Shown here: positions 3,154 to 19,271 of the stretch, piece by piece | How positions within the stretch are numbered: the first letter of the stretch is position 1 | Layout: the number at the start of each line of letters is the position of its first letter | Source: Promethearchaeota archaeon | GTDB lineage: Archaea > Asgardarchaeota > Hermodarchaeia > Hermodarchaeales > Hermodarchaeaceae | NCBI GenBank assembly: GCA_048938295.1 | Contig: JBHLMI010000003.1 | Coordinates: 30,001-62,000 of the forward strand | Direction of reading: 5' to 3' | DNA length: 32,000 bases | Position numbers and translations under genes: made by a program | The notes under the pieces: generated by a model | Databases searched by the model: none | What the model was told of the DNA's origin: nothing | Seen by the model: only the letters and a program-made list of their open reading frames with translations

Positions 3154-4095
3154 GTGAACCACGTTATGGAATATGAAGGTATGAGTGTGGAGTTCACTCC
3201 TATTCACAAACTCGTGAATGAAGCGATTGATCGTTTCACCGAGTATGTTGCCATTGAACGCGGGGGAAGTTACCAAACTTCCCGTGTTTATCGTTATGAT
3301 CTCGAGATGTTCTTTCAATATATTGGGGTTCCACCTCAACAGGTGCAACCTCAACATGTGCGAATGTTTCTGACCCATCTGAAAACTGATAACGGATATG
3401 CAAGCGCCTCGTTAAGGCGAAAACTTGCTTGTTTACGATCTTTTTTCCGTTTCCTGGTCAAGCGACAGCTGTTACCTGCCGATCCAACAGCAGGGCTGAT
3501 GACACCCAAGCTAGGTCAACATCTTCCCCGAACTATTCCCCCAGAGGACGTCAATCGCCTTCTCTGGGCGGCTCGCAACGTAGAGAAAGAGCCTATCCGG
3601 GCCCATACCATCTTCCAAATCCTGTACAGCACTGGGGTTCGCGTTTCAGAACTTTGTGACATCAATATTGAAGACATCGATTTCGCAGAAGGCAACATCC
3701 GTGTCCGCGGCAAAGGTGACAAAGAGCGAATCGTCTTCTTAACGGTTCCCGCCATGAATGCAATTGTTGAATACCTTCAGTTCCGTCCTGCAACTGGCCC
3801 GCTTTTTTTAAATCGCCGAGGTCAACGTCTCTCCCCCTTAACCGTTCAGCGAACAGTGCGTGTCGTTGCCCAGCACGCAGGGGTAACCATAAAAGTTACA
3901 CCGCACGCGTTACGTCATTCCTTTGCCACCCATATGCTCGAACGAGGAGCTGATGTACGGGTTCTTCAGGAACTCCTAGGGCACTCGAATATATCGACCA
4001 CTCAGATATACACCCACGTCTCGCTGGCCCATGAGCGAGCCGTTTTCCAACGTACACATCCATTAGCTGAATCCGATCCTGAGGGAGCCTACTAA
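3154..4095 (+). CDS. xerA: XerA/XerC-D-like tyrosine recombinase
   Basis: N-terminal SAM-like core-binding domain. All catalytic residues present: R (TGVRVSEL), K (GKGDKER), HxxR (HALRHSF), H (LLGH), Y (TQIY). The start may be a downstream ATG (3166 or 3181). Confidence 0.88.
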   Translation: MNHVMEYEGMSVEFTPIHKLVNEAIDRFTEYVAIERGGSYQTSRVYRYDLEMFFQYIGVPPQQVQPQHVRMFLTHLKTDNGYASASLRRKLACLRSFFRFLVKRQLLPADPTAGLMTPKLGQHLPRTIPPEDVNRLLWAARNVEKEPIRAHTIFQILYSTGVRVSELCDINIEDIDFAEGNIRVRGKGDKERIVFLTVPAMNAIVEYLQFRPATGPLFLNRRGQRLSPLTVQRTVRVVAQHAGVTIKVTPHALRHSFATHMLERGADVRVLQELLGHSNISTTQIYTHVSLAHERAVFQRTHPLAESDPEGAY

Positions 4096-4532: not shown

Positions 4533-5156
4533 ATGCAATACTTATCATTGGACAGAAAGTCTAGTGTGACTTCGATGTCAGAAATCGTTAGTTTAGACCA
4601 GCTTATTCGTACCATGAAGAAGAGTCCAAACTCAATGGAACGGGCACAGGCGGCTCGTGGCATCGGCCACCTAAAGGATCCAGGGGCCATCCAAGCCCTC
4701 TTAGAAGCCTTAGGAGATTCTGATTACGAAGTACGCCAAGCTGTAATTTGGGCACTGGAACAGATTCGGGATGAACACCTAGTCGATGATCTAATTGATG
4801 ATTTGAACCATGAGGACCCGGATGTTCGTCGGGGGGTGGCTTATGTGCTGGGTGAAATAGGTGATCGAGAAGCTGTAGATCCACTCTGTAATGCCCTAAA
4901 TGATGACAACCTCTATGTCAGGAAATCTGCCATTGAAGCCCTAGCTTCTATAGGTGATTGGAAAGCGGTGGACCACATTATTTCGCGGTTAGACGATGAA
5001 GATTTATATGTCCGACAAGCAGCTGCGACTGCTCTAGGAGAAATGGGGGAGATGCGGGCAGAAGAGGCCCTACAACGCTTGTTAAGAACGGAGCAAGAAC
5101 TCATTGTTCGCCATGCAATCAGAGTAGCCTTAGCACGCCTTGCTGGTGGCGATTAG
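4533..5156 (+). CDS. HEAT/PBS-lyase repeat protein
   Basis: About six repeats of roughly 31 aa, e.g. VRQAVIWALEQI, VRRGVAYVLGEI, VRKSAIEALASI, VRQAAATALGEM. Confidence 0.9.
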   Translation: MQYLSLDRKSSVTSMSEIVSLDQLIRTMKKSPNSMERAQAARGIGHLKDPGAIQALLEALGDSDYEVRQAVIWALEQIRDEHLVDDLIDDLNHEDPDVRRGVAYVLGEIGDREAVDPLCNALNDDNLYVRKSAIEALASIGDWKAVDHIISRLDDEDLYVRQAAATALGEMGEMRAEEALQRLLRTEQELIVRHAIRVALARLAGGD

Positions 5157-5702: not shown

Positions 5703-7547
5703 TTAGATCTTAGCTCCACAGGCGGGGCAGAAGCTAACCCCTGGAGGAATTGGTGATCCACAGTTGATACAAGTAACCTCGGAAGAGGATTTATCTGGAT
5801 AGTCGAATTCGTCTGGAGGTGGGGGGTATGAAGTATCTTCAGTTGGTGGAGGTGGCGCTTTAGGACTTGTTGCCTTTTGTGGGCTGCGTCGGACAATTCC
5901 CAGCAGGAGTTTTATGAGCCAAATAATGGCGTAGATTGCAACGAGGAGGATGACGAGAATGACTGGGATGGACCAGGGAATGTCGCGCATTATGGCGATG
6001 ATGAAGTCAAGGATGTTACCATAGACGACGGTTAGTAAGGCCTCATTACTCGATTTTATCCAGACTCTGGTCAAAGCGTCTTCGAAGGTGATATTTGCAC
6101 GTTGGGCGATATAACTGCCTTCACCATAGACGGTGATTTGGTAGGTATGAACCTCCGTTTCACCAGGTGCAATAGAGGTCCAGTTGGCAGTTAAGCTGCC
6201 ATCGATTACGACCAGTCCGGTGGTAAAGCCTTCATAGATAAGCCAGCTTTCTGTGTCGTCGAGATCGACGTTGTAGACTGTTTCAGTGGGATCGATGTTT
6301 TCAAGAGTAATGGTGACAGTTGCGGTGCCCCCGATGGTAATGAGGGGAGTAACAGTTTTTGTAATGCTAAGTCCAGGTGGAAAGTCGCCTTCAAAGCTGA
6401 CGATGATATTCGGAACACTTGGTGTAGCTATCCAGAGGGCGGATGGACGGGCAACCATTGCTCCTTCAGGTCCGGTGGTATTAACCATGTCAGCTGGAGA
6501 ATAGGAGGTAATGTTGACTCCGGCAGGAAATTGCATGATGAATTCAAAGGCTGTCATCGTAGAACCCATTTCGATATTGCCGCTGTGTCCACAGAAGTCA
6601 TTGACATCGAAGGTTTGCTCGGAGGTGCCAAAGAATTTGTCTTTATGTTGGCTGCCCCAAGCAGCGAAGGTTATGGCTTCAGGGGGTTGCATCGCTGTTT
6701 TAGAAGGGGCTGACAAGAAACCACCTTCCATCACAGCCAGGTTGATGAACCCGGATAATCCAATGCCGCCGATGGCATCTTCAGCCAGGGTGGAAGTTAC
6801 CAATTCAGTGCCACCATCTCGTGTAGAACCGAGGTCTTGCATATACGCTTGGAAATGATCCCGTCCTTGGATTTCTACTGGATCCGGGCCAGGGATCCCA
6901 TAGAATCCATATGCTTCGATTCCAACGGTCATGTTAGGGAGTGGCAAAGCCAGTCCAAATATCCGTTCGAAAGGTGTTGTGAGGATTGCTTCGAATTCGA
7001 GGTGAATTGCATTTCCCCATCCTTGGATTTCTGCTGGGGAACCACCCGTGAAAATCATGAGAATAGCGTTGGAGGGTAAAAGATTCAGGATTTCATAGAG
7101 CGCATCCATTTCGGACCCACCACCACTGGTGTCGTTGGTGAGAATGGATAAGATTCCATCGAATACTGTTTGGTATTCACCCCATCGGAAAATGGAAATT
7201 GCCATCAGACACTCTTGATAGGGAGGAGCACTGGTGGTGTATGCCCCAACGTTGCCGACAGCCATCACGGTAGAGGTCATCGAGCCATCTGGATTCACAA
7301 CAAAAGCGGTTAAATCGGCTTCACCTTCCAGTGTGAAGTTTTGTGCACGCATGGCGATGGGTATCGATGAAGTTTGAATATCAAAGGCGTCACTAGATCC
7401 GAGTTGTGGAGACTCGTCTGGTATGCTGAAACCAACTGAAATAAGGAAGCCGCTAAGAATGAACAGGAGACCAAGCGTGATGACGAGAAGCGTAAGGGGG
7501 AGTTGATGATTAAGCTTGCGTGTGTGAGTGATACGTGTACGTTTCAT
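5703..7547 (-). CDS. Cell-surface protein: N-terminal signal/anchor, large extracellular region with a DUF11-like Ig domain, TM helix, Pro-rich tail and C-terminal zinc ribbon
   Basis: N-terminal hydrophobic helix; LSITKTVTP...TVTITLEN Ig-like segment; C-terminal TM; PPPP tracts; CINCG...FCPACG. Confidence 0.75.
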   Translation of the reverse strand: MKRTRITHTRKLNHQLPLTLLVITLGLLFILSGFLISVGFSIPDESPQLGSSDAFDIQTSSIPIAMRAQNFTLEGEADLTAFVVNPDGSMTSTVMAVGNVGAYTTSAPPYQECLMAISIFRWGEYQTVFDGILSILTNDTSGGGSEMDALYEILNLLPSNAILMIFTGGSPAEIQGWGNAIHLEFEAILTTPFERIFGLALPLPNMTVGIEAYGFYGIPGPDPVEIQGRDHFQAYMQDLGSTRDGGTELVTSTLAEDAIGGIGLSGFINLAVMEGGFLSAPSKTAMQPPEAITFAAWGSQHKDKFFGTSEQTFDVNDFCGHSGNIEMGSTMTAFEFIMQFPAGVNITSYSPADMVNTTGPEGAMVARPSALWIATPSVPNIIVSFEGDFPPGLSITKTVTPLITIGGTATVTITLENIDPTETVYNVDLDDTESWLIYEGFTTGLVVIDGSLTANWTSIAPGETEVHTYQITVYGEGSYIAQRANITFEDALTRVWIKSSNEALLTVVYGNILDFIIAIMRDIPWSIPVILVILLVAIYAIIWLIKLLLGIVRRSPQKATSPKAPPPPTEDTSYPPPPDEFDYPDKSSSEVTCINCGSPIPPGVSFCPACGAKI

Positions 7548-7569: not shown

Positions 7570-8205
7570 CTAATTCCGGACGGGGAAAAGTAAACGTCCG
7601 ATGAAACCTCCGATCATCATTGTTACCACCAAGATGATGAAATTGAGCACTGCTGGGAGAACAATTATGTTCACCAAAATCGATTGCAGGAGCACAAGTA
7701 GATTGCTGGGATCAGGTATACCGCCTCCGATTAAGTCTCCAACTCCTCCAGTAATGGCGTTGATGATGGGACCAATTACTGGAGCATCTAGAACATCAAA
7801 TAACGATGTGTTAGGGGGAATATTCGACAGCATCGCCAGAGGGTCGATACCTCCACCTCCTGCAAGGAGAAGCGGAACAATCATGGCAATGAGGCCAACG
7901 ATTAGCATCAGAAAGGTCAAGGTGAAGATGACCATTGCTACTGGAATAGCACCCCAAATACTGCGAACGAACAGCCCGGTGATGAATCCGATTGCTGCCC
8001 AAATGCCAATGATTGGAAGAAAAGTCATAGGCGAGGCAAAGATGAGGAATAGATACATGAGAAAGAATCGCAGCCACGGTCCGAAGTAGGGCGCAAGCCA
8101 TAAGATGATGCTATTGTACTCAGTGGGAATCATAAAGAATGCAATGGTAATGGTGAGGAGAAAGCCAAGAGAAAGCCCGATAAGTTTTCGTCCCATAAGT
8201 CTCAT
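7570..8205 (-). CDS. Multi-pass membrane protein, probably co-transcribed with the downstream surface protein
   Basis: About five hydrophobic helices; 22-bp gap to the next gene on the same strand. Confidence 0.75.
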   Translation of the reverse strand: MRLMGRKLIGLSLGFLLTITIAFFMIPTEYNSIILWLAPYFGPWLRFFLMYLFLIFASPMTFLPIIGIWAAIGFITGLFVRSIWGAIPVAMVIFTLTFLMLIVGLIAMIVPLLLAGGGGIDPLAMLSNIPPNTSLFDVLDAPVIGPIINAITGGVGDLIGGGIPDPSNLLVLLQSILVNIIVLPAVLNFIILVVTMMIGGFIGRLLFPVRN

Positions 8206-8331
8206 TCCTTACAAGTTAATGGTTACGTTTGTCTCTCCAAAACCACACCTTTAAGGTTTCTTGCCGACAAAAAGCCTCAGAGAATCTTATATGTTAATCT
8301 CAAGAAAATCATGTGACAGATTGCAGAGAAG

Positions 8332-8403
8332 TTATTTCCTTTGCTTCTTTCGGCGTCTTCGTCGAATCTTGCGAGCACGTTTCTTTTTCCATTTGTTTCG
8401 CAT
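8332..8403 (-). CDS. rpl41e: Ribosomal protein L41e (eL41/eS32), 23 aa
   Basis: Hand translation gives MRNKWKKKRARKIRRRRRKKQRK*, matching the eL41 pattern MRxKWxKKRxRRxxRxRRK. It is absent from the ORF track because of its length. Confidence 0.9.
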   Translation of the reverse strand: MRNKWKKKRARKIRRRRRKKQRK

Positions 8404-8834
8404 GACGCGCCCATCCACTATCCAGTATATGCCATTCATTTTGGGTGTATAATCATAAAAATAGTGTTAACTAGGCTCTTCTTTCTCGTTGAGTGGAGCC
8501 TTCATAAGGGCTTGAAATGACTCCCAAAGGTGCCTGACATACTGGGTAATTGTATGAGTAGGACATGTTGAACTAGAAACATAACGATCAAGCGTATTGC
8601 TAGCAGTCCAAATTCACCGAATAGTAAAAGAATCGTGAACTCGATCTGGCTGATAGGACCTGCAAAGAACTACGTTGCCGAGAAACTAACAAAATTTATG
8701 AGAAAGAGTCCAAAAGTCGATATGAAGCTTAGAAGCATTTGGATACTTCAAACGTAGAGAAACCTCTGACCGCTTCTGGAGCTTCTAGACATGGGAGCTT
8801 CTTGGGTTTAATCATTGTTGTAATGTTTTTGAAC

Positions 8835-11504
8835 TTAGCGTGTACTTTGAATGAAAGGACGAGTTTTTTTCTGTTCTTGTTCCCATTTCTTTCGTTCAGA
8901 ACGAAGCTTGAAGAGATCAATTTCTTTGTAGATGATCCCTTCCTGTCCTTTGGGCATTGTTCGTTCTTCCCGGTCTTTTTCCGGAGAATAAATGAGGGAA
9001 TCTCCAAATTCAGCGACGTTAATGAAGAAGCTGTAAGCATAGATCGACCGTCGGGCGTCGAAGTGGATGGCTTTGAAATCTGCGGTGACGGGGGTAAATG
9101 CAGGATTGATAATAATATCAATGGCTGGCTCGAAGTTCTTAAGCTCAACACGAAGATCCATGTCCAAAAAGTCACGGCAGATGATGACAGCTATACGCCC
9201 GTACTCTGTGTTAGCAATCGTAATTTGAGCAGCAGACGGGCTTGTGGTGATACCTTCGATGATACGGTGTTTCTGGTAATGGATGATGGCTGGGATATGT
9301 TTGGCTTGCTCCCAGAGTATACCTTCACGGGAAATGATTGTGCTAACGTTCTGTCGTGTATCGGTTTTATGGTATGAACCAGGAATAATATACATGTTAT
9401 GGGTTTTTGCGAGTGAGATCACTTCATCGAATAAAACTTTCGAGTTGAGGTCTATTGTCAATTCGGGGAACGCGAGAATCTTAATCTTGTCTTTTGCGGC
9501 AGCTTCAATCATTCTACGGACCGTTGATTGGATTTCTTTGATTTTGTTTTGGCGAATCCTAAATAGACCAGACCCATCTTCTTGGTAGTATTCGTGGAGA
9601 ATATCGCCCGATTGTGATAGCCCGATTTGGGCAATACCGACTTTGAACTGTGTTTTTTCATGATCTTGCTGGTCTTTCAATAAATCCAGATACACTAGAT
9701 TATATTTCTGTATAGGGGCTGAATCTATCGTAGTCCTTTGGTCAACGATATTTGTAACCGTTTCTTTAATCATCCGCTCAAGAAGTGCATCAAGCTTAGT
9801 TAGTTCAATCAGTTCTTGTCTAGAAGGTGCATCCTTCACAATGAGATCCCATTTTTTCATGTGCGAATCGAGGAGTTTCCTTTCGTTGGAGAGAACCTTT
9901 TCAAGTCTTTTTAATTTCATTTCCTCTGCAATCGCTTGAGCTTGGGTTAGTAGTTTGTTTGCTCGGCCCATATCCATTTCAACTAGGGCAAGTTTGGATT
10001 GCAGGAGATAAGCTTCTGCGAGTAAGTATGGAGAAGATTGAAGCTTGGCGATTTCAAGTAGTTGCTTTGTTAGCTGTGAGATATCACCGATGAGTTCATC
10101 TTCGCCAGTTAGTCTCAATTCTGTTAAAAGGAGGTCACAAAGATGGATCATTGCAGTCTCTTTCAATGAATGATCGACTACTTCTTCAGTGACAACTTCT
10201 TCGAGAATTTCACTTGCCTTTAGTTTTTGGCGTGTGCGCTTACTGGTTTTGAGGATGAGTGCTTTTGCAACACGATAACGTTGATCGATAACACGATTAT
10301 GTCTGCGAGCATTGATCGCACCTAGTTGCGCCAGAGAGTGTTCTATGAGGGCTGAATCTTGTATTTCGATGCCTACTCTAACCAATTCAAATAACACAAC
10401 GCTGGCTAAAAAGTCGTTACCGAATTCGTTGGAGAGAGCTAAACTTTTTTCGTAGCAGTCTTGCGCTCTCTGGTATTCTGCTTTCTTCTGATAAACACTG
10501 CCAATATTGGCTTGTAATAGTGCAATTTGGTCCTTTAACTCCAATTCCTCGTAGATTTTTAGGCTTCTCTGATAGTATTTGAGAGCTTCCTCGAAATCTC
10601 CTTTGAGTTCGTAGATGTCACCGATATTATTAACAGCTAATGCGATATCGGTCTGGATATTGAGCTCTTCGCCCAGCACTAGGCTTCGGTGGTAGTAGTC
10701 TTGGGCCTGGTTGAGATCGCCTTTGAATTGGAATATCACCCCTAGGTTCAGTAGAGACAGGGCGATATCATGCTTATTCCCAAGTTCTTCTTTGATTTTA
10801 AGACTCCGTTGGTGGTAGACTAGGGCCTTATCAAGTTCACCGATTCGAATGTAACAATTTCCCAGATTCGTTAAGGTCACACCGATGTTTCGTCGATCTA
10901 CCAACTCCTCATTGACCTTTAAAGCTCGATGATAGAATGCGAGTGCTTGATCTATGTCCCCTTTTGACCAGTAGACTAGCCCTAGATTATTGAAGCTACG
11001 GGCAACACCTCTCTTATCATTCAGCTTTTGTTTGATTTCGAGACTTCTCAGGTGGTAATTTAATGCTGTATCGAATTTTCCCTTATACCAGTATGCAATT
11101 CCCGCTTGGTTAAGTAACGCCGCTTTACGCTGATTTATTTCAGTTTCTTGTTTCGAATCAATTTCCTTGAGGAGGTCTAACCCCTTTTGAGCAGTTTCCA
11201 AAGCCTTTGTCATTTCAGCTGAGCGCCAGTAAAGTTCAGCCTGTACAACCATCGCATCAATCGTCAGCAAGGGATCAATCTGAGGAGATTGGGACTGCAA
11301 AAGGTCAAACACCATCCTTTGAGCCTTCTCCACTTCATCAAGACTAAGTAAGAGTTGGCTTTCTAGAAGTTTATATGAAAATTGAATCTCAGGAGTCAAT
11401 TCTTCGAAGGCCAGACTCCTTAGTTTTGTAAGGGCTTGTTCATATTCGCCCTCATCTTTCAATTGAGCGATTATTGCAAGTTTAGTCTGAATAACTTTAG
11501 CCAA
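8835..11504 (-). CDS. TPR-repeat protein fused to a C-terminal carbon-nitrogen hydrolase (nitrilase-fold) domain
   Basis: About six 40-aa TPR repeats (NNLGLVYWSKGDIDQALAFYHRAL type). The C-terminal domain has KVGIAQ, LAFPEL (E), QAKH (K) and IICRDF (C). Confidence 0.85.
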   Translation of the reverse strand: MAKVIQTKLAIIAQLKDEGEYEQALTKLRSLAFEELTPEIQFSYKLLESQLLLSLDEVEKAQRMVFDLLQSQSPQIDPLLTIDAMVVQAELYWRSAEMTKALETAQKGLDLLKEIDSKQETEINQRKAALLNQAGIAYWYKGKFDTALNYHLRSLEIKQKLNDKRGVARSFNNLGLVYWSKGDIDQALAFYHRALKVNEELVDRRNIGVTLTNLGNCYIRIGELDKALVYHQRSLKIKEELGNKHDIALSLLNLGVIFQFKGDLNQAQDYYHRSLVLGEELNIQTDIALAVNNIGDIYELKGDFEEALKYYQRSLKIYEELELKDQIALLQANIGSVYQKKAEYQRAQDCYEKSLALSNEFGNDFLASVVLFELVRVGIEIQDSALIEHSLAQLGAINARRHNRVIDQRYRVAKALILKTSKRTRQKLKASEILEEVVTEEVVDHSLKETAMIHLCDLLLTELRLTGEDELIGDISQLTKQLLEIAKLQSSPYLLAEAYLLQSKLALVEMDMGRANKLLTQAQAIAEEMKLKRLEKVLSNERKLLDSHMKKWDLIVKDAPSRQELIELTKLDALLERMIKETVTNIVDQRTTIDSAPIQKYNLVYLDLLKDQQDHEKTQFKVGIAQIGLSQSGDILHEYYQEDGSGLFRIRQNKIKEIQSTVRRMIEAAAKDKIKILAFPELTIDLNSKVLFDEVISLAKTHNMYIIPGSYHKTDTRQNVSTIISREGILWEQAKHIPAIIHYQKHRIIEGITTSPSAAQITIANTEYGRIAVIICRDFLDMDLRVELKNFEPAIDIIINPAFTPVTADFKAIHFDARRSIYAYSFFINVAEFGDSLIYSPEKDREERTMPKGQEGIIYKEIDLFKLRSERKKWEQEQKKTRPFIQSTR

Positions 11505-11665
11505 GATAAAAGCCTCATGAAAGGCGAACTAGTTCTTTCTATTCATAATGAATCCATTTTAAGACTCCGATTGAAATAGGTGTCACTGTTGTAGCTATTG
11601 TTATCTTCTTTAAATAGAAGAAATAAAACTAGATAAAAGGAAAAGAGAGAAACTGTGGTGGAATT

Positions 11666-12502
11666 TTGTTTCACAGATCCATCTCATTACGAAAACTTGT
11701 TTTATCCACTGTATTATTCTTAGTCCTTTCCACTCTCTTTCCTATCACAGTATCTGCAGTACAATTTTGGAGTGAATATTTTGAGGTTGATAATATAGAT
11801 TCCTTGGACGATTGGATTCTTCAGGGATACGAACTAGTTGATGATATATATTCTGAAGTCGATCATGGATTCATTATTGAGAATGGAACGCTGACTGCTG
11901 AAGATGTCTATTACTACTGGCCTAATGTTGGATACCACGGAGACCTGACCCATGTAAGAAGAGCGATTCATAATAGTACCGTGGCATATGGTACTTGGAG
12001 TTTTGATTGGCATGTATCCAGTAGTAATGTTTCCTTCGATTCTGTTAATTTTATATTTACAGATTTAGAAAGCAATTACAATTTATCTGGAGTATCTCAG
12101 GTTCCTAATATGGATGGTTATGCATTAATTTTAGACTCATTTGTTAATGGTGAAATCTACTTTGAGTTATTCCAAGGATTGGAGCGTTACATATTAGCTA
12201 GACACCCTATCATCACTAGACCTAATGAGGTATTTCATTTTGACATCATACGAGATTTATCAGGACAGTTTCAAATCAATCTCAATTCAGAATTAGTTAT
12301 CGAGATAGCGGATGATAGAGTCACTACATCGGAAACATTCAGTTTTGTTTCTTTTCAAGGGAATTCCTCGATCGATAATATTGTTGTTAGTTATAGCATT
12401 GAGGGCGCTCTATCTGACCAGACCCTTAAGATAGTAGCAATCAGTATTGGCATTAGCTTAGTAGTCATTGCTATTGTCATTCTCTTGAAGCGAAAAACTT
12501 GA
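11666..12502 (+). CDS. Secreted, C-terminally membrane-anchored beta-rich protein (possibly a concanavalin-like fold)
   Basis: N-terminal signal peptide, beta-strand-rich aromatic core with NxS/T sequons, C-terminal TM plus KRKT. The fold is inferred. Confidence 0.7.
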   Translation: MFHRSISLRKLVLSTVLFLVLSTLFPITVSAVQFWSEYFEVDNIDSLDDWILQGYELVDDIYSEVDHGFIIENGTLTAEDVYYYWPNVGYHGDLTHVRRAIHNSTVAYGTWSFDWHVSSSNVSFDSVNFIFTDLESNYNLSGVSQVPNMDGYALILDSFVNGEIYFELFQGLERYILARHPIITRPNEVFHFDIIRDLSGQFQINLNSELVIEIADDRVTTSETFSFVSFQGNSSIDNIVVSYSIEGALSDQTLKIVAISIGISLVVIAIVILLKRKT

Positions 12503-12673
12503 TCTAAGTTGGGAAAAAAATGAAATGACCTAGTTCTGATATCTCATACAATGAACGAAACTTTGGTGTTATGAATGGCAGATATTTGAATTTGGACAGT
12601 AAATGAAACAGAATTGGAATAATACCTGAAATTCGCCACACATTTTAACAATAGGCACCTTTTTCATAACTAT

Positions 12674-13486
12674 ATGGATTCTGTAGCTCTAGTTAATTTC
12701 ACTCAAGACTTTTTAAAAACACTAGAACAGGGACTTAAGCAGATCCAGGGATTTGGTTCGCTTGCTTCCCCTGTGATTATAAAACCCAACATCTGTACTA
12801 TTAATGATAACACTGGCTATTCAGTAACCCATACCCTAGTAGTTGAGGCAATTGTAGACTTGCTTTTCCACCACAATTCTAACCTGTCGGTTAAAATCGT
12901 TGAATCTGATTCACAAAGCAAATGGGCTAATGAGGCGTTCACTAAATTCGGATATACTGATCTTGTAGAAAGATTCCAAAATAGGAAATATGATATCGAA
13001 TTGGTTAACCTCAGTGATTGTAAAACGGAAGAATTTCACTTCCAAGGCGAGTACTTTACCAACCCAGAATTGGCAGATATGTTAAAGAAAATTGGATATA
13101 TTATTTCAATAGCACAGGCAAAAACCCATTACTTAACCTCGATTACGGGAGTTTTGAAGAACCTCTTTGGTTTCCTCCCACAGAAAAAGCAGGGATTCTA
13201 TCACCCGAATGTCAACGAAGTTATCGTCGATTTGAACCGGTTGTTTCCCATCAATCTAAGTATCATTGATGCGCGAGTAGGTGTTCATGGTTGGAACGGT
13301 CCCAAGACAACACCGTTAGGTAAGTTCATTCTGGGTCACAAACCTGTATCAGTTGATGCGATACTAGCCCAACTAATGAACCTAGAACCGAACCAAATAC
13401 AACATCTAGTCCAAAGTCAAAAATATGGTCTAGGTACAATAAACCCAAAGGTAATTTATGATTCTGAGATGAATTCTTATGGTTGA
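12674..13486 (+). CDS. DUF362-family protein
   Basis: VIIKPN, IVESD, AKTH...ITGVLKNLFG and IIDARVG motifs. Confidence 0.8.
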   Translation: MDSVALVNFTQDFLKTLEQGLKQIQGFGSLASPVIIKPNICTINDNTGYSVTHTLVVEAIVDLLFHHNSNLSVKIVESDSQSKWANEAFTKFGYTDLVERFQNRKYDIELVNLSDCKTEEFHFQGEYFTNPELADMLKKIGYIISIAQAKTHYLTSITGVLKNLFGFLPQKKQGFYHPNVNEVIVDLNRLFPINLSIIDARVGVHGWNGPKTTPLGKFILGHKPVSVDAILAQLMNLEPNQIQHLVQSQKYGLGTINPKVIYDSEMNSYG

Positions 13487-13958
13487 AATAAGTAGGCAGA
13501 CGATGTTTACTGACCTTGAGTTGTATCTTTGGAGATTCCGCTATTTGCCTAGCGAGGAATGGCGTCCAGAAATCATGTTGAGAGGTTCACCCAAAGCACT
13601 TATCGTTATGCGGGATGCGATTCGGTTGATGCAGGAAGAGTTCAAGGTGCATGGTAAGAGCACTCGCAAGTTTTTATGTAACCCTCCTGAGGATGTTGAT
13701 GTACACCGTTATGCCAAGCTTCGAGATGCAGAAATTGAATGGCTCATCTGGTTAGTCCTGAGATTGCAAAAAGAGCCACCACTATTTGCTGAGTATGAAA
13801 TTAACAACAAGGCCGTAACTATAACTCTGAACGAAAAGACAGTAGCACAGTTACTTAAAATTATTGAGAATGAACTTGATCCCGGAAAGGAATTCCCCAA
13901 TGGCCAGCATGCGCCTGGAGGTCTGTTATTCGCTCCTGATTGGCTTGGAGTTGAATAA
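13479..13958 (+). CDS. Hypothetical protein (159 aa), overlapping the DUF362 stop codon
   Basis: Protein-like ORF with an 8-nt overlap, suggesting translational coupling. No family recognised. Confidence 0.65.
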   Translation: MVEISRQTMFTDLELYLWRFRYLPSEEWRPEIMLRGSPKALIVMRDAIRLMQEEFKVHGKSTRKFLCNPPEDVDVHRYAKLRDAEIEWLIWLVLRLQKEPPLFAEYEINNKAVTITLNEKTVAQLLKIIENELDPGKEFPNGQHAPGGLLFAPDWLGVE

Positions 13959-13981
13959 AAAAGTAAGGGACGAGAAGGCTG

Positions 13982-14059
13982 TTACCAGTCCTCCTCGTCG
14001 TCGTATTCTTCATCCCAATCTTCTTCGTCGTCTTCAGGACCAATCACATATGGGAGCAT
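13982..14059 (-). CDS. Acidic micropeptide MLPYVIGPEDDEEDWDEEYDDEEDW (25 aa)
   Basis: AGGTGA RBS 8 nt upstream of the ATG, in-frame stop shortly upstream, T6 tract about 20 nt after the stop. Not in the ORF track. Confidence 0.6.
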   Translation of the reverse strand: MLPYVIGPEDDEEDWDEEYDDEEDW

Positions 14060-14100
14060 TTTTTCTTTCACCTTTGAGGTTTCAGATTGCTTTGTTTACA

Positions 14101-14114
14101 GTTGAGTGCTCAAC
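14101..14114. promoter_or_regulatory. Palindrome GTTGAG-TG-CTCAAC upstream of the micropeptide gene
   Basis: Perfect 6-bp arms in non-coding DNA, about 40 nt upstream of the ATG at 14059. Confidence 0.35.
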
Positions 14115-14419
14115 CTTTATCCAAAGAACAGAAATGGTGGAACATCCCTGATCTTTGAGCAAGGATTGAGGCAAAGGAGCTGGACCCACCCAGAACAAGG
14201 GTTATTTCTTTCCCTTTTTCCAGGCGGGTATAGTTGCCGTTAAGTAGAGTTGCAAATGTAAGTTATTCAGTGAGAAAAACCTGATTTTAAAGGATTATTT
14301 TTTAAAAAGAAGTGCAAATTAAGCCTCTTTTATTGTAGATATGCATAATTTTACATTTTAAGTCGAATCAAGCACTAATTCCTTGTATAAGTACGAAAAA
14401 AGGCAAAAAATGACGGAAT

Positions 14420-15286
14420 TTAGGTGTCACATATATGTAACCTATTTCGGACTCGGGTCACCGCTGATGCCACTCGATTTACAAATGGAGTAAGATCTAT
14501 TCCAAATTCATTATTGAAGAACTGGGCCTGTTTTCTCAATAGGCGAAGCTGAGTACGTAACCGTTGAAACGACTTTTTGAATTGTGTTGATATACAGGCG
14601 TCATTGTTGATCGATTTCAGTTCCTGAAAAAGAGCACGACAACCATTAATAATCCGTTTTGCACGATTCTCAAACTGTGATTGCACTAGTTGAGAAATTA
14701 ATCGGTGAGTATCAGAACCTATTAATTCAAGACGAGGAGCGTACTCAACCGACTCACTGAGGTCCACGAGCCGGGAAAGGAACTCGCTTGGGCGAAACAG
14801 AGCTGGGACATATTGACGAACCCGCTTTGTTCGAATCTGTGGTAGCAGGACGATTCCCGGTTTTATTCGAATCAATGGCGTGCGATGGAAAAGACGTGAA
14901 AGCTTTCTTCGCTGGAACTCATGCTTCACAGGGTCATAGACTACAAGTATGTATCTCCTTAGTTTCTCCTTCGTTACAGTGACTTCTGTTCTCTTTGTTT
15001 TCGTGATATCACGCCTTGGGATGAATATCAACACATCAGAAGAACCCCGTACAGGAGTGAAACGTGTTGCATTATTTGACCTAATTCGTGCATACACTTT
15101 GGGGCGTAACTGAATAATTCCAGGTTGATTCTGAAAGGCAGCTACGCTATTTTTCAGCAGGATGAAGATTCGAGAATAGCCTTTGAGCTGTTGAGCAGCA
15201 GTTGCCCCTTGCTCCGCTAGACGCTCAGAAGTGGAGTAAATCACACCATCCTTAGGGACTGATGTCATCTTCTTGAAAAGGGACAA
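14420..15286 (-). CDS. PaaX-central/Cas2-like (ChrB N-terminal-like) domain protein, basic, with a helical C-terminus
   Basis: RYILVVYDP...QRRKLSRLF...IRIKPGIVLLP resembles the Cas2/PaaX ferredoxin-like pattern, followed by a long amphipathic helical region. Confidence 0.55.
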   Translation of the reverse strand: MSLFKKMTSVPKDGVIYSTSERLAEQGATAAQQLKGYSRIFILLKNSVAAFQNQPGIIQLRPKVYARIRSNNATRFTPVRGSSDVLIFIPRRDITKTKRTEVTVTKEKLRRYILVVYDPVKHEFQRRKLSRLFHRTPLIRIKPGIVLLPQIRTKRVRQYVPALFRPSEFLSRLVDLSESVEYAPRLELIGSDTHRLISQLVQSQFENRAKRIINGCRALFQELKSINNDACISTQFKKSFQRLRTQLRLLRKQAQFFNNEFGIDLTPFVNRVASAVTRVRNRLHICDT

Positions 15287-15376
15287 ACTATTGTTACTTT
15301 TGTCCCCACCGCTGCTGCTATATTACCTTTTCTAAATTGGTTGGTGGACGAACATCATATAGGGTTTTCTGGAAGT

Positions 15377-18304
15377 TTAGATAGACCGTACTGTCAAATA
15401 GAAGTATTTTGTTTCTGTGTGCACACCATCGACGAGTATGCGTAACTCGATGATGAATGTTGTCAGCAGTACCCCTGGATTAAGGTTCTTCGCATGAATA
15501 GTAATGGTTCCACCCATCAAATCCAGAGGATACATAGTAGACAGGCCCACATTATAGAGGTAGACACCGCCAGAATAAGACGAGGTCACATTGGCACCAT
15601 GATAGTAGATATCAAAGTTCGACCCATAAGTGGCGAGTTGAATGACCACATCGTTTGTAGTCGTATTCCCGTTCTTGACAAGATAACTCAGTGTCGAGTT
15701 TTCACCCACGTTGATGTCAAAGGGATCAAGACTCGTATCCACGAAGTTAACTCCCGTCACCGTTTGGTTATAGCCAAAGAAGAATTGTGCATAGGCTTCT
15801 GCTGCTGTTGCTCCGTACGCGACGTGATTGATATCCTCAGCATCCACCATACCCACATAACGTAGAGTTTCAACAAGCGATTCACCTTCACTTTGAATTG
15901 CGTAAACAGGGAACAGGTAAACGAGTGTGCTACTAAGTGTCATGAGGAGTCGGTTACCGATGCGATAAGGTTGAATCAACACCAAGTCTGATCGGGCTTG
16001 CTGCTCAAAGCTATCAACTGCGGGGTCCACACCGAAGACAGGACTTGTTGGCACTGCCGTATCTGGGTCTACGGAGCCTGCCCTAGCAAATACACCCGTT
16101 CCCACATCGGGTCCGTTCTTAAACAGGTAGAAGCCAGCCATTTTCTGGGCTTCGTGGCGGATGTATCGAACGGCTTGGTAGCCAACCCAATGGAGGCTGC
16201 CATTGTAAGGATAAAGCACGTAGTGGATATCGGGTTGGCTATTGGGCTTTTCGAAGAAATCAGAGTAGTTCCGCCAAACCCAGGGTTCTGTGACGTGGTA
16301 GTAGAAATCAACTGATAATTGAAAGTCGATGAGATTTTCAGGGTAGCGGAGCTGATCTTCCAACCAGACTGGAACATCCTCCCAGGGATACCAATTCTCA
16401 TATAATGACTCGATGAAGAAATTACCTGGATCAGCATTGGGATTTCGTACCCAGGTGATGTCTCCAGTGGCGCAGTTAATAACAGCGAATCCCAGAAGTC
16501 GCAAATAGGAGGATTGAGCGTATTGGAGTTGCAACGGATACCCACTGAAGATTGGTACACAGTAATAGGCTTCCCGGTCAAGGCGATTAAACACCAAATA
16601 CGGGTCATAGTCAGTATACATGAAAGGCAACAGGATAGCTTGAGTTCGTTCCTGAATATCACGATGCATTAACATTTTAGCTGATGGTTCGCTGAAGGCA
16701 AGCCAGGTAAAGCTGAAATCTTCGATACCCCAGACAAGCTTTTTGAGAGCCAGTTCTGGGCCCGTTAGGATATAATCCGGGTTCCCTTCAAAATTATACA
16801 CCCCTGTTTCTGGAGCGATAGCGGTGTCAACCAATACAAATCCCTCAAATCCATTGTTGAATTGACTTGGTGGGCTTTCGCCATAATAAATTGGCATATT
16901 GGCGTTGACCCCGAAAATGCTGAAGAATTGTCCGGGAGTGAGGAATTCGCCGGTTGCGCTGCTAGCGTCAAGGGCTGCAGCGCCTTCAGCGTGGGTATAG
17001 AGGATATATTTTTTGTGGAAGTCATCACGGCTGGGTGGAGTGAGGGAGTAAGGGGTTATCCAGTATTCACGGCCCCCGAGATAGACAATGTCACTGTCTG
17101 CTAGTGACATCCAGTTGGCGATGGTTTGACTCCGCATCTTGTTCCGGCTGGCGTCGAAATCCCATAGTCTTGCATGCCCAAGGACTTCGCCATCCGAGAC
17201 ACCAGAACTATTAACAAGTTGTTCATAGGGAAGATCCCTGACATCCGGTCCTCCAGCCCAGTTGGTAAATTGAATTTCTTTGGTTACTAGAGGATCCCAA
17301 TGCCAGGGTTCCCACATTTGCCCCTGGATAGGTCCTGCGACAAGATATCCAGTATAGAGGGCTGGTCCGACAACCAAAGCGATGGTGATTATTCCTAAGC
17401 CTGCTATCACATGACGGTTCAAACGCGGTATCTCTCCAGCGCGACCGTAGCGGCCAAAGACAGTGAGTCCAAAAGAGATGCCACAAACAATCGCGAAGAA
17501 GACGAAGAGGATAAGGATTTGTATAACAAAGAATTGAGTACCTACGTCGACTTCAATATAGGGTACACCCAGTAGAATCCAAAGGAGGCCTAATGCGACA
17601 ACAAAGCTCACTGAGGCAAGAACCCGGATCTCGGGGTACTCGGTGGAGCGGCCAATACGCCCGAAGTAGTGGATGAGGTCTAATATGACTCGAACAGCCA
17701 TAACAGCAATGAGTAAGGTCATGAAGGTGAAGAAGATAGTATACTGCACCTCAATAGTCGGGATGAGACCAGCCACCACCTCAACAGGAACCATAGGATT
17801 GAAAATGAGTTGAAAGACTTGAGAGACTTGACTCCAATCACCGACCCCTGATGCAGAACTCTGGAAGAGCAAAGCGAGGTAACGCATATTCTCGGTAAAG
17901 ATGAAAGTTAAGAGAAGATAGGAGCCAACGAAAAGTAAAGCTTTCCATCCAATAACCATATACCAAGAGGGAATCCGTCGACTGCTTACGCGATCACTCA
18001 TATAGATGAGATTCAGGGTTTTCGATTCCCAGGGCAACCCAACAAAAGTAATGATTAATGCCATTGGAACGCCAACAAAGAAGAGTAATCCATTCAAGGA
18101 ATAGGTGGCCCACCAGGACACCCCGGCCTTATTCAGATACATTACGTCCAGCATTTTCCAATCTAGCAACATGTTTTGGATACCAAATGCTGCGACAGCA
18201 ATTACACCTATGATAATAAACATAACAATGATAACAGCAAGAATTTTGCGTCGTGATCTACCGATTGTTATGGTCCGTCGTGGTTCATAGTCCAAATCCA
18301 ACAC
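15377..18304 (-). CDS. UPF0182 (COG1615) family membrane protein
   Basis: N-terminal multi-TM region, then ARLWD, DIVY, YTH, IYYGE, DPY and RYP motifs. Confidence 0.85.
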   Translation of the reverse strand: MLDLDYEPRRTITIGRSRRKILAVIIVMFIIIGVIAVAAFGIQNMLLDWKMLDVMYLNKAGVSWWATYSLNGLLFFVGVPMALIITFVGLPWESKTLNLIYMSDRVSSRRIPSWYMVIGWKALLFVGSYLLLTFIFTENMRYLALLFQSSASGVGDWSQVSQVFQLIFNPMVPVEVVAGLIPTIEVQYTIFFTFMTLLIAVMAVRVILDLIHYFGRIGRSTEYPEIRVLASVSFVVALGLLWILLGVPYIEVDVGTQFFVIQILILFVFFAIVCGISFGLTVFGRYGRAGEIPRLNRHVIAGLGIITIALVVGPALYTGYLVAGPIQGQMWEPWHWDPLVTKEIQFTNWAGGPDVRDLPYEQLVNSSGVSDGEVLGHARLWDFDASRNKMRSQTIANWMSLADSDIVYLGGREYWITPYSLTPPSRDDFHKKYILYTHAEGAAALDASSATGEFLTPGQFFSIFGVNANMPIYYGESPPSQFNNGFEGFVLVDTAIAPETGVYNFEGNPDYILTGPELALKKLVWGIEDFSFTWLAFSEPSAKMLMHRDIQERTQAILLPFMYTDYDPYLVFNRLDREAYYCVPIFSGYPLQLQYAQSSYLRLLGFAVINCATGDITWVRNPNADPGNFFIESLYENWYPWEDVPVWLEDQLRYPENLIDFQLSVDFYYHVTEPWVWRNYSDFFEKPNSQPDIHYVLYPYNGSLHWVGYQAVRYIRHEAQKMAGFYLFKNGPDVGTGVFARAGSVDPDTAVPTSPVFGVDPAVDSFEQQARSDLVLIQPYRIGNRLLMTLSSTLVYLFPVYAIQSEGESLVETLRYVGMVDAEDINHVAYGATAAEAYAQFFFGYNQTVTGVNFVDTSLDPFDINVGENSTLSYLVKNGNTTTNDVVIQLATYGSNFDIYYHGANVTSSYSGGVYLYNVGLSTMYPLDLMGGTITIHAKNLNPGVLLTTFIIELRILVDGVHTETKYFYLTVRSI

Positions 18305-18446: not shown

Positions 18447-19271
18447 ATGAATATGAGGCAAAAATTGGTGGTCTCGGTTTCTGGCAAGGGTGGTGTGGGC
18501 AAAACCACTATCACAACCCTTCTCCTACGTACATTACTTACACATACACGGCACCAACTCCTGGTCGTCGATGCAGACCCGGTAATGAATCTACCTGCAA
18601 TGCTCAATATTCCGGTTGAGATGAGTGTGGGGGAAGTTGCAACTAAGCTCCGGCTTGACATTGATGCCGGTGTCCTCCCAGCAGCGGCTTCAAAGCAAGA
18701 CCGATTGGAAGGCGATGTCTACGAAGCGTTAATCGAAGGTGATCGATTCGATTTTCTACCCATGGGACGCACTGAAGGCGAAGGATGCTATTGTTTTGTG
18801 AATCGGGTTCTCACACAGATCCTTGATACCATTACAGCGAACTATGATGTAACCCTTCTAGATATGTCTGCAGGTCTTGAGCATCTGAGTCGGCGAACAG
18901 ACCGCAACGTCGACGTCCTGTTGATCGTCATTGATCCATCGAAAATGGCATTTGATGCAGCGGTGCGCATTAAGGAGTTAGCAAAAGAAGTCCACATTGA
19001 ATTTAAGCACATCTGGGTAATTGCCAACCGTTTTCCCTCCGCTATGATTGACGAACTAGCCAAAGACCTGGAAAAACGGCTAAACAATGAGGAACTTGAA
19101 TTAGTAGGAATCGTGCCTGCCGATGATCAGATCGTTGAGTTCAACTTGAAAGGAAAATCACTTTTAGAATTACCTAATGATCATCCTGCAGTGCTGGCAG
19201 TCGATAAGATTGCTAAGCGTATTGGACTGCTAAGTGAAGAACAGCTATTGGAATTACTGGGTCACTCTTAA
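18447..19271 (+). CDS. cooC: CooC/AcsF-type nickel-insertion ATPase (CO dehydrogenase/ACS maturation)
   Basis: Deviant Walker A GKGGVGKTT, DADP, GRTEGEGCYC (CxC nickel site) and DMSAGLEHLSRRT. Confidence 0.88.
   Translation: MNMRQKLVVSVSGKGGVGKTTITTLLLRTLLTHTRHQLLVVDADPVMNLPAMLNIPVEMSVGEVATKLRLDIDAGVLPAAASKQDRLEGDVYEALIEGDRFDFLPMGRTEGEGCYCFVNRVLTQILDTITANYDVTLLDMSAGLEHLSRRTDRNVDVLLIVIDPSKMAFDAAVRIKELAKEVHIEFKHIWVIANRFPSAMIDELAKDLEKRLNNEELELVGIVPADDQIVEFNLKGKSLLELPNDHPAVLAVDKIAKRIGLLSEEQLLELLGHS

Follow-up and report, generated by a model that had tools for sequence, protein, structure and literature searches.

A TPR-nitrilase fusion protein of Hermodarchaeaceae and other Asgard archaea with a module of the DRT1-type effector clade

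Introduction

Nitrilases of the class 3 UG/Abi systems form a clade apart from other nitrilases (Mestre et al., PMC9226505). DRT1 and UG5 need the nitrilase Cys for defence, DRT1 with a swapped C-terminal lid (PMC13275509; PMC13436386; PMC9226505). UG5 defence depends on its catalytic Cys (PMC13436386), and in DRT1 the conserved C-terminal residues of the neighbouring protomer cover the active site and are needed for defence, the substrate of such defence nitrilases being unknown (PMC13275509). The CARF-nitrilase CARF_m7 (PDLC01989) is a type III CRISPR-associated candidate effector. Here, we describe a gene for a protein in which a solenoid of tetratricopeptide repeats (TPRs) precedes a nitrilase-fold enzyme (the TPR-nitrilase). 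The gene lies at positions 8835..11504 (-) of a 32,000-nt stretch of DNA (the window), which covers positions 30,001-62,000, forward strand, of contig JBHLMI010000003.1 from a Promethearchaeota archaeon (Hermodarchaeaceae; assembly GCA_048938295.1; 2.52 Mb, 91.6% complete). Its nitrilase module groups in the divergent clade to which the nitrilases of anti-phage effectors (DRT1, UG5, CARF-nitrilase) also belong, and the protein is probably a ligand-switched enzyme. A literature search found no paper describing this TPR-nitrilase family.

Results and Discussion

The open reading frame (ORF) runs for 889 codons plus a stop and begins with TTG, and both start and length are retained in orthologues. 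The full-length AlphaFold2 (AF2) model, built on 108 full-length homologues, has a mean predicted local distance difference test score (pLDDT) of 87.1 and consists of a solenoid of 29 helices over residues 2-586, an alpha/beta domain over 598-882, and a low-confidence end (883-889). The N-terminal helical cap (residues 1-123; 11136..11504, on the (-) strand like all parts of the gene given below) is the most variable part, with a mean identity to homologues of 26-30%. It is followed by six regular 40-residue TPR units (residues 124-363; 10416..11135), modelled as paired helices with pLDDT above 90; Pfam gives TPR_12 at 1.2e-42 and six stretches each of TPR_1 and TPR_7 within about these residues, which bears out the roughly six repeats on a helical scaffold counted in the first-pass annotation of the window. 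A conserved MalT-TPR-like helical-repeat domain (residues 361-557; 9834..10424) shows 61-67% identity to homologues over 401-520 and overlaps a TPR_MalT match over residues 250-529 (8.6e-19). A tether (residues 558-597; 9714..9833), modelled at low confidence (pLDDT below 50 over 559-597) although its sequence is conserved, with P560 and M578 invariant, leads into the nitrilase-fold core (residues 598-882; 8859..9713), where Pfam places CN_hydrolase (PF00795) over residues 656-869 with 27.9 bits against a gathering cut-off of 23.2.

The nitrilase tetrad is complete, with catalytic Glu E681 (FPEL; 9462..9464), Lys K735 (QAKH; 9300..9302) and Cys C776 (ICRDF; 9177..9179), and a second Glu, E750 (9255..9257), that aligns with the Glu of the HES motif in yeast Nit3. 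Both Glu residues and the Cys are kept in all 109 sequences of the first alignment and the Lys in 108, so the Glu-Lys-Cys triad read from the three motifs at first pass is both intact and conserved. Among 108 aligned full-length homologues, residues 776-832 are nearly invariant, with invariant columns in the helices of residues 777-821 (9042..9176), and FIQSTR always ends the protein; within this C-terminal tail (residues 883-889; 8838..8858), which has low pLDDT in the monomer model, F884-T888 are invariant and R889 nearly so. Neither a hydrophobic segment nor a Walker A motif is present in the 889-aa protein, which indicates a soluble protein without a nucleoside triphosphatase (NTPase), and Pfam, NCBIfam and PADLOC detect no NTPase family (NACHT, NB-ARC, nSTAND) in it. 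This anatomy is secure: an intact effector-clade nitrilase is joined through the tether to a ligand-binding solenoid.

Several comparisons place the module with defence-type nitrilases. The source genome encodes stand-alone canonical carbon-nitrogen (CN) hydrolases that score 206, 181 and 79 bits to PF00795, against 31 and 40 bits for its two fused modules. The PADLOC models CARF_nitrilase (47.9 bits, 1.8e-13) and RTasNitrilase (43.8 bits, 4e-12) fit the module better than Pfam CN_hydrolase does. A full HMMER scan of 1.84 billion representatives returned a tight core of relatives (at least 40% identity, E <1e-57), then a gap, then distant relatives of at most 35% identity. The 75 next-nearest relatives match RTasNitrilase (58), UG5-nitrilase (54), CARF_nitrilase (48) and Drt1a (35), and only 30 of them match Pfam CN_hydrolase at E <1e-4; several contain LRR, HEAT or nSTAND3 regions. 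Among solved chains, DRT1 (9yfd) alone aligns with the core profile over the greater part of its length, from position 82 to 295 of 302, and the aligned part takes in the C-terminal helix. A quick maximum-likelihood tree unites the 70 core modules in a single clade (SH-aLRT 94), and the defence-type relatives attach between this clade and the metabolic enzymes of the source genome; branches there are long, so this position is treated only as consistent with defence-type kinship. The relationship to DRT1-type nitrilases raised at first pass is therefore upheld by PADLOC scores, next-nearest relatives, the 9yfd alignment and the tree, and the module does not group with ordinary metabolic amidases.

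The TPR-nitrilase nonetheless differs from each described system. With DRT1 (UG1, a class 3 UG/Abi reverse transcriptase), it shares the divergent nitrilase clade by hidden Markov model, a C-terminal module placed after helical repeats, and a conserved tail, but it has a TPR solenoid as its N-terminus in place of a reverse transcriptase, no control by a DNA adduct, and an Asgard host without defence-island context, and the sequence similarity is weak (profile E 2e-5). The UG5/DRT11 reverse transcriptase-nitrilase and the stand-alone reverse transcriptase-associated nitrilases supply the best-matching defence models (RTasNitrilase, RT_UG5-nitrilase) for the module and its next-nearest relatives, whereas no reverse transcriptase or transmembrane partner gene lies near the TPR-nitrilase gene. 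CARF_m7, the top PADLOC match, likewise fuses a sensor to a nitrilase, but the sensor here is a TPR solenoid instead of a cyclic-oligoadenylate-binding CARF domain, and no CRISPR locus is seen in the window. Neither the protein nor its neighbours contain a reverse transcriptase or CARF domain.

A search with residues 560-889 returned 881 proteins, of which the top 120, nearly all with this architecture and a length of 840-940 residues, show 55-88% identity in the module; their labels are Promethearchaeota, Thor-, Hod- and Odinarchaeota, with a few WOR-3 bacteria. A pattern scan of 185,579 species, each represented by a single genome, yielded 267 module loci, the nearest in a Hermodarchaeota metagenome-assembled genome at 89% identity, and the top 80, which were inspected, are nearly all Asgard with three WOR-3 records, two of them complete chromosomes. 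With more than 100 full-length homologues and 267 loci, the fusion is real. An assembly or gene-calling artefact, or a decaying gene, has practically no chance of accounting for it and was ruled out: no point in its support was found, the 889-aa frame recurs in many independent assemblies including complete chromosomes, the stretch is present in several sequencing runs, and the ratio of nonsynonymous to synonymous divergence (dN/dS, or omega) against the closest orthologue is 0.12 at dS 0.46. No RNA data set was listed for the gene. One complete WOR-3 chromosome carries a single copy at 60% identity. Ribosomal S8e is absent from this chromosome and L20 is present, which fits a bacterium, so that the gene has crossed domains (an archaeal small-subunit rRNA model gave no match on the WOR-3 record, which is uninformative).

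Across a sample of 201 Asgard genomes from 27 families, the module occurs in 55 genomes and 5 families, at 1-8 matches per genome, including 12 of the 14 genomes of the source genus and 10 of 11 in another genus, and tandem arrays hold up to four adjacent module genes. Two such arrays (G191:C1:157734-170593 and G121:C33:148257-157065) consist of four and three genes of ~1280 aa, respectively, with the module on an unrelated solenoid. The source genome has two scaffold-fused copies. The second lies on contig 2 at about 105.7-108.2 kb (loci L002 and L023); its identity to the first is 58% for the module and 32% for the scaffold, and it has an 845-aa open frame that ends in FIQSTRS.

Domain shuffling is seen in both directions. 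The shuffled unit, residues 588-889 (8838..9743), is 61% identical to the C-terminus of 1277-residue proteins (P0111) whose 975-residue helical N-terminus is unrelated, and it also follows beta-helix/NosD repeats (P0146 and P0149; 1616 and 1800 aa) and S33-type alpha/beta-hydrolases (about 534-586 aa), and occurs stand-alone at 287-332 aa. These modules belong to one clade, in which the tree requires at least two or three switches of scaffold type. The scaffold in turn is shared, at 55-63% identity over residues 395-590, with proteins that end in a Ser/Thr kinase domain (Pkinase 9.5e-51) or a KaiC-like ATPase and with scaffold-only proteins of 607-624 aa. One module thus sits on at least four other kinds of N-terminal region and one scaffold has at least three outputs, in agreement with the proposal at first pass that an enzyme had been swapped onto a TPR scaffold. 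The accompanying suggestion of a scaffold expansion particular to Asgard genomes lacks support or goes too far: the source genome has only two copies, the kinase form (L107 1486-4131) adjoins genes for TrmD, RplS and RNase HII in a typically bacterial order, and the clusters of the KaiC-like form P0286 and the scaffold-only form P0275 have members labelled Bathyarchaeota. The shuffling spans Asgard archaea, Bathyarchaeota-labelled records and bacteria, and it is relevant to the way in which the lineage closest to eukaryotes puts together receptor-like proteins. P0128 (1090 aa), an unusual carrier of the module, joins an AAA_16 fragment, the nitrilase and an alpha/beta-hydrolase in one protein, and the scaffold without an end module at L106 6001-7875 belongs to a protein cluster with a Bathyarchaeota-labelled member.

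Modelled alone, the module (pLDDT 89.4; predicted template modelling score, pTM, 0.88) matches mouse Nit2 (2w1v) best, with Foldseek E 2.5e-14, VIA Z 25.4 and a root-mean-square deviation of 3.3 A over 238 residues, in a Foldseek copy of the PDB that may predate the DRT1 entry. The model and this match support the four-layer alpha-beta-beta-alpha nitrilase fold, the outcome anticipated when a Foldseek check of the C-terminal domain was proposed. An assignment to a branch from structure was tried and dropped; with all nitrilase branches level at Z 23-25, the fold settles the superfamily but not the branch. Nit2/omega-amidase and other metabolic nitrilases (2w1v, 1ems, 5h8k) share with the module the fold and the Glu-Lys-Glu-Cys tetrad, and the dimer predicted for the module would likewise form through the two post-Cys helices, but their identity to it is 15-19%, they usually have CWE or CYD at the Cys where the module has CRD, and the module adds an N-terminal strand (601-607), the invariant tail and a 590-aa scaffold.

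A two-copy prediction of the module scored 0.60 against 0.18 for the best control, with at least 78% of contacts in common between runs and partner pLDDT of at least 86; among proteins of solved structure, 20 of 30 pairs and 1 of 23 single chains reach the mark applied for homodimers. The predicted interface (residues 777-790, 808-821 and 877-882) coincides with the near-invariant helices that follow the catalytic Cys. This is also the surface through which solved nitrilase dimers pair, so the score may reflect the memory of the model, and the prediction shows likeness rather than binding. By analogy with DRT1, the invariant FIQSTR tail is a candidate lid over the pocket of the neighbouring module.

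A mechanism along these lines can be sketched. Two modules would form the dimer typical of nitrilases, with the invariant helices (777-790 and 808-821) in contact, and perhaps larger assemblies as well, and the tail (883-889) of each may complete or close the pocket of the other, as in DRT1. A peptide or protein bound in the TPR groove would decide whether the tethered modules assemble or open, and this in turn could switch on hydrolysis of a small amide or nitrile through a Cys-thioacyl intermediate.

The best solved fold matches of the scaffold are the peptide-binding TPRs of LGN/Pins (E 1e-12), followed by the TPRs of OGT/SPY and by Rap regulators. Like Rap/RRNPP proteins (4gyo, TM 0.75 on the target), MalT-type sensors (TPR_MalT, as above) and OGT/SPY, the TPR-nitrilase combines a TPR solenoid with an enzymatic or regulatory output, but its output domain is another one and it has no STAND NTPase and no DNA-binding domain; the likeness is one of design, not descent. 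It differs from STAND/NLR-like receptors in lacking the central P-loop NTPase, and some distant relatives of the module carry nSTAND3.

We tentatively read the TPR-nitrilase, at somewhat less than an even chance, as a cytoplasmic single-gene sensor-effector with a role in a defence-type conflict or stress response and not in core metabolism. We lean this way because of the kinship of the module, its receptor-like shuffling, the patchy multi-copy spread and the transfer between domains. Other observations weigh against it. PADLOC gave no match for eight of ten flanking ORFs and repeat-level matches only for a HEAT-repeat ORF (4533-5156). Clustering of the ORFs around the 80 inspected loci gave no family shared by more than 9 of them, and recurrent neighbour families reflect lineage-specific gene order. 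No relative turned up in a pattern scan of IMG/VR viral contigs with the module profile. Within its genus, 12 of the 14 genomes have the gene, with gene order kept, and the other outputs of the scaffold, protein kinase and KaiC-like ATPase, are signalling-type domains. The AF2 model does not fix the placement of the enzyme against the scaffold, because its overall pTM is only 0.63 (tether pLDDT below 50). Purifying selection acts on every part of the protein, with omega 0.08 in the TPR array, 0.10 in the conserved helical domain, 0.13 in the module and 0.22-0.23 in the N-terminal cap (0.22) and tether, in a comparison limited to the closest orthologue, with synonymous sites saturated beyond it; a conserved ligand of cellular origin would explain this as well as one of viral origin. 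The role as a defence effector offered by the first-pass annotation thus finds no backing in defence-related neighbours, a conserved partner gene, distribution within the genus or selection in the compared pair.

Two other explanations stay alive because of the missing defence context, the stable gene order, the purifying selection and the kinase and KaiC-like sister outputs. The TPR-nitrilase may be a protein-directed amidase working on the logic of OGT/SPY, in which the solenoid presents a protein or peptide to the nitrilase for deamidation or deacylation in a housekeeping or regulatory role; N-terminal Asn/Gln, as in yeast Nta1, or acyl-lysine, as in biotinidase, would be example substrates. 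Within the nitrilase superfamily, Nta1, Lnt and biotinidase act on protein or acyl-lysine amides. The resemblance of the TPR part to peptide-binding LGN/Pins and OGT/SPY repeats speaks for such an enzyme, as do the strong purifying selection on both scaffold and module, the near-universal presence of the gene in its genus with gene order kept, the fusion of the module to S33-type alpha/beta-hydrolases, and the protein kinase, a protein-modifying output, on the same scaffold. We nevertheless consider it unlikely: the sequence neighbours of the module are effector nitrilases and not Nta1, Lnt or biotinidase (Nta1 is absent from the listed sequence and fold matches, with no dedicated comparison run and all nitrilase branches tied at Z 23-25), a flexible tether of ~40 residues separates scaffold and enzyme where OGT has a continuous channel, the same module also occurs on non-TPR scaffolds and stand-alone, and the distribution is patchy, with variable copy number and inter-domain transfer. 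A comparably small chance attaches to a ligand-gated signalling enzyme with a non-viral ligand, in which the scaffold would be a general sensor, the nitrilase, kinase and KaiC-like ATPase alternative outputs, and a small metabolite of signalling or stress would be produced or removed by the nitrilase. The scaffold region shared with Pkinase, KaiC-like and scaffold-only proteins, the typically bacterial gene order beside the kinase form, the MalT-type and Rap-type TPR resemblances and the lack of defence context all fit this explanation; the defence effectors among the relatives of the module, the tandem arrays of up to four adjacent copies in other genomes, and the absence of a linked regulator or target gene around the 80 loci do not.

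An ordinary metabolic amidase (an omega-amidase, carbamoylase or similar) whose scaffold serves localisation or assembly appears very improbable. The best structural match is Nit2/omega-amidase and the CN_hydrolase score exceeds its cut-off, but the tie among nitrilase branches means that the fold picks none of them, the genome already has three canonical stand-alone CN hydrolases that score 79-206 bits where the module scores 31, defence-type nitrilases are its closest relatives in sequence, and no metabolic operon surrounds the gene. Returning to the defence-type sensor-effector, we regard a more specific form of it as rather doubtful, namely that these proteins are a family of one-protein, NTPase-free immune receptors in Asgard archaea and WOR-3, in which the repeat scaffold, be it TPR, alpha-solenoid or beta-helix, would sense a viral or stress-derived peptide and allow a DRT1-type nitrilase to assemble and to destroy an essential metabolite with an amide group. 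If true, no simpler sensor-nitrilase system would be known, and the substrate of defence nitrilases could be approached through it in a practicable way. DRT1, UG5 and CARF-nitrilase are proven or candidate immune effectors, and the same kind of module is found here in a simpler setting: one soluble protein with no reverse transcriptase, DNA adduct or partner gene, in hundreds of natural variants together with stand-alone forms, so the nitrilase chemistry could be easier to find.

Genomic context

The gene order around the TPR-nitrilase gene is kept in other species of the genus and not in Thorarchaeota or WOR-3. The neighbours encode a 614-aa TRAP-beta-like/zinc-ribbon protein, proteins of 211 aa and 278 aa of unknown kind, a DUF362 protein, two further unknowns, a UPF0182 protein and a ParA-like ATPase, none of them defence-related. 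The G+C content is 0.42 for the gene and 0.403 for the block 8200-15300, against a genome mean of 0.458, which puts the block in the lowest 0.6% of 7.1-kb windows; besides the TPR-nitrilase gene, it contains DUF362 (12674-13486) and ORFs without a family (7570-8205, 11666-12502, 13479-13958 and 14420-15286). The A/T-rich accessory block described at first pass is accordingly A/T-rich, its accessory nature finds no support, and the conserved gene order in the genus argues against a recent island.

Other features of the window were noted in passing. A XerC/D-type tyrosine recombinase (3154-4095 (+); Phage_integrase 7e-48) is followed by a 207-aa HEAT-repeat protein (4533-5156 (+); HEAT_2 4e-48). 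The 614-aa protein (5703-7547 (-)), a conserved neighbour in the genus, has a weak TRAP-beta-like region (residues 408-491) and a C-terminal zinc ribbon. The UPF0182-family protein (975 aa; 15377-18304 (-)) adjoins the ParA/MinD-like ATPase (18447-19271), a pairing kept in locus L014. About 430 nt downstream of the TPR-nitrilase gene and on the same strand lies an Arg/Lys-rich ORF of 23 codons (8332-8403 (-)) that starts MRNKWKKKR; it resembles ribosomal protein eL41, but a PF05162 search of the genome gave no match. This ORF is kept at the same place in five other loci from related genomes (L014, L026, L027, L029 and L030).

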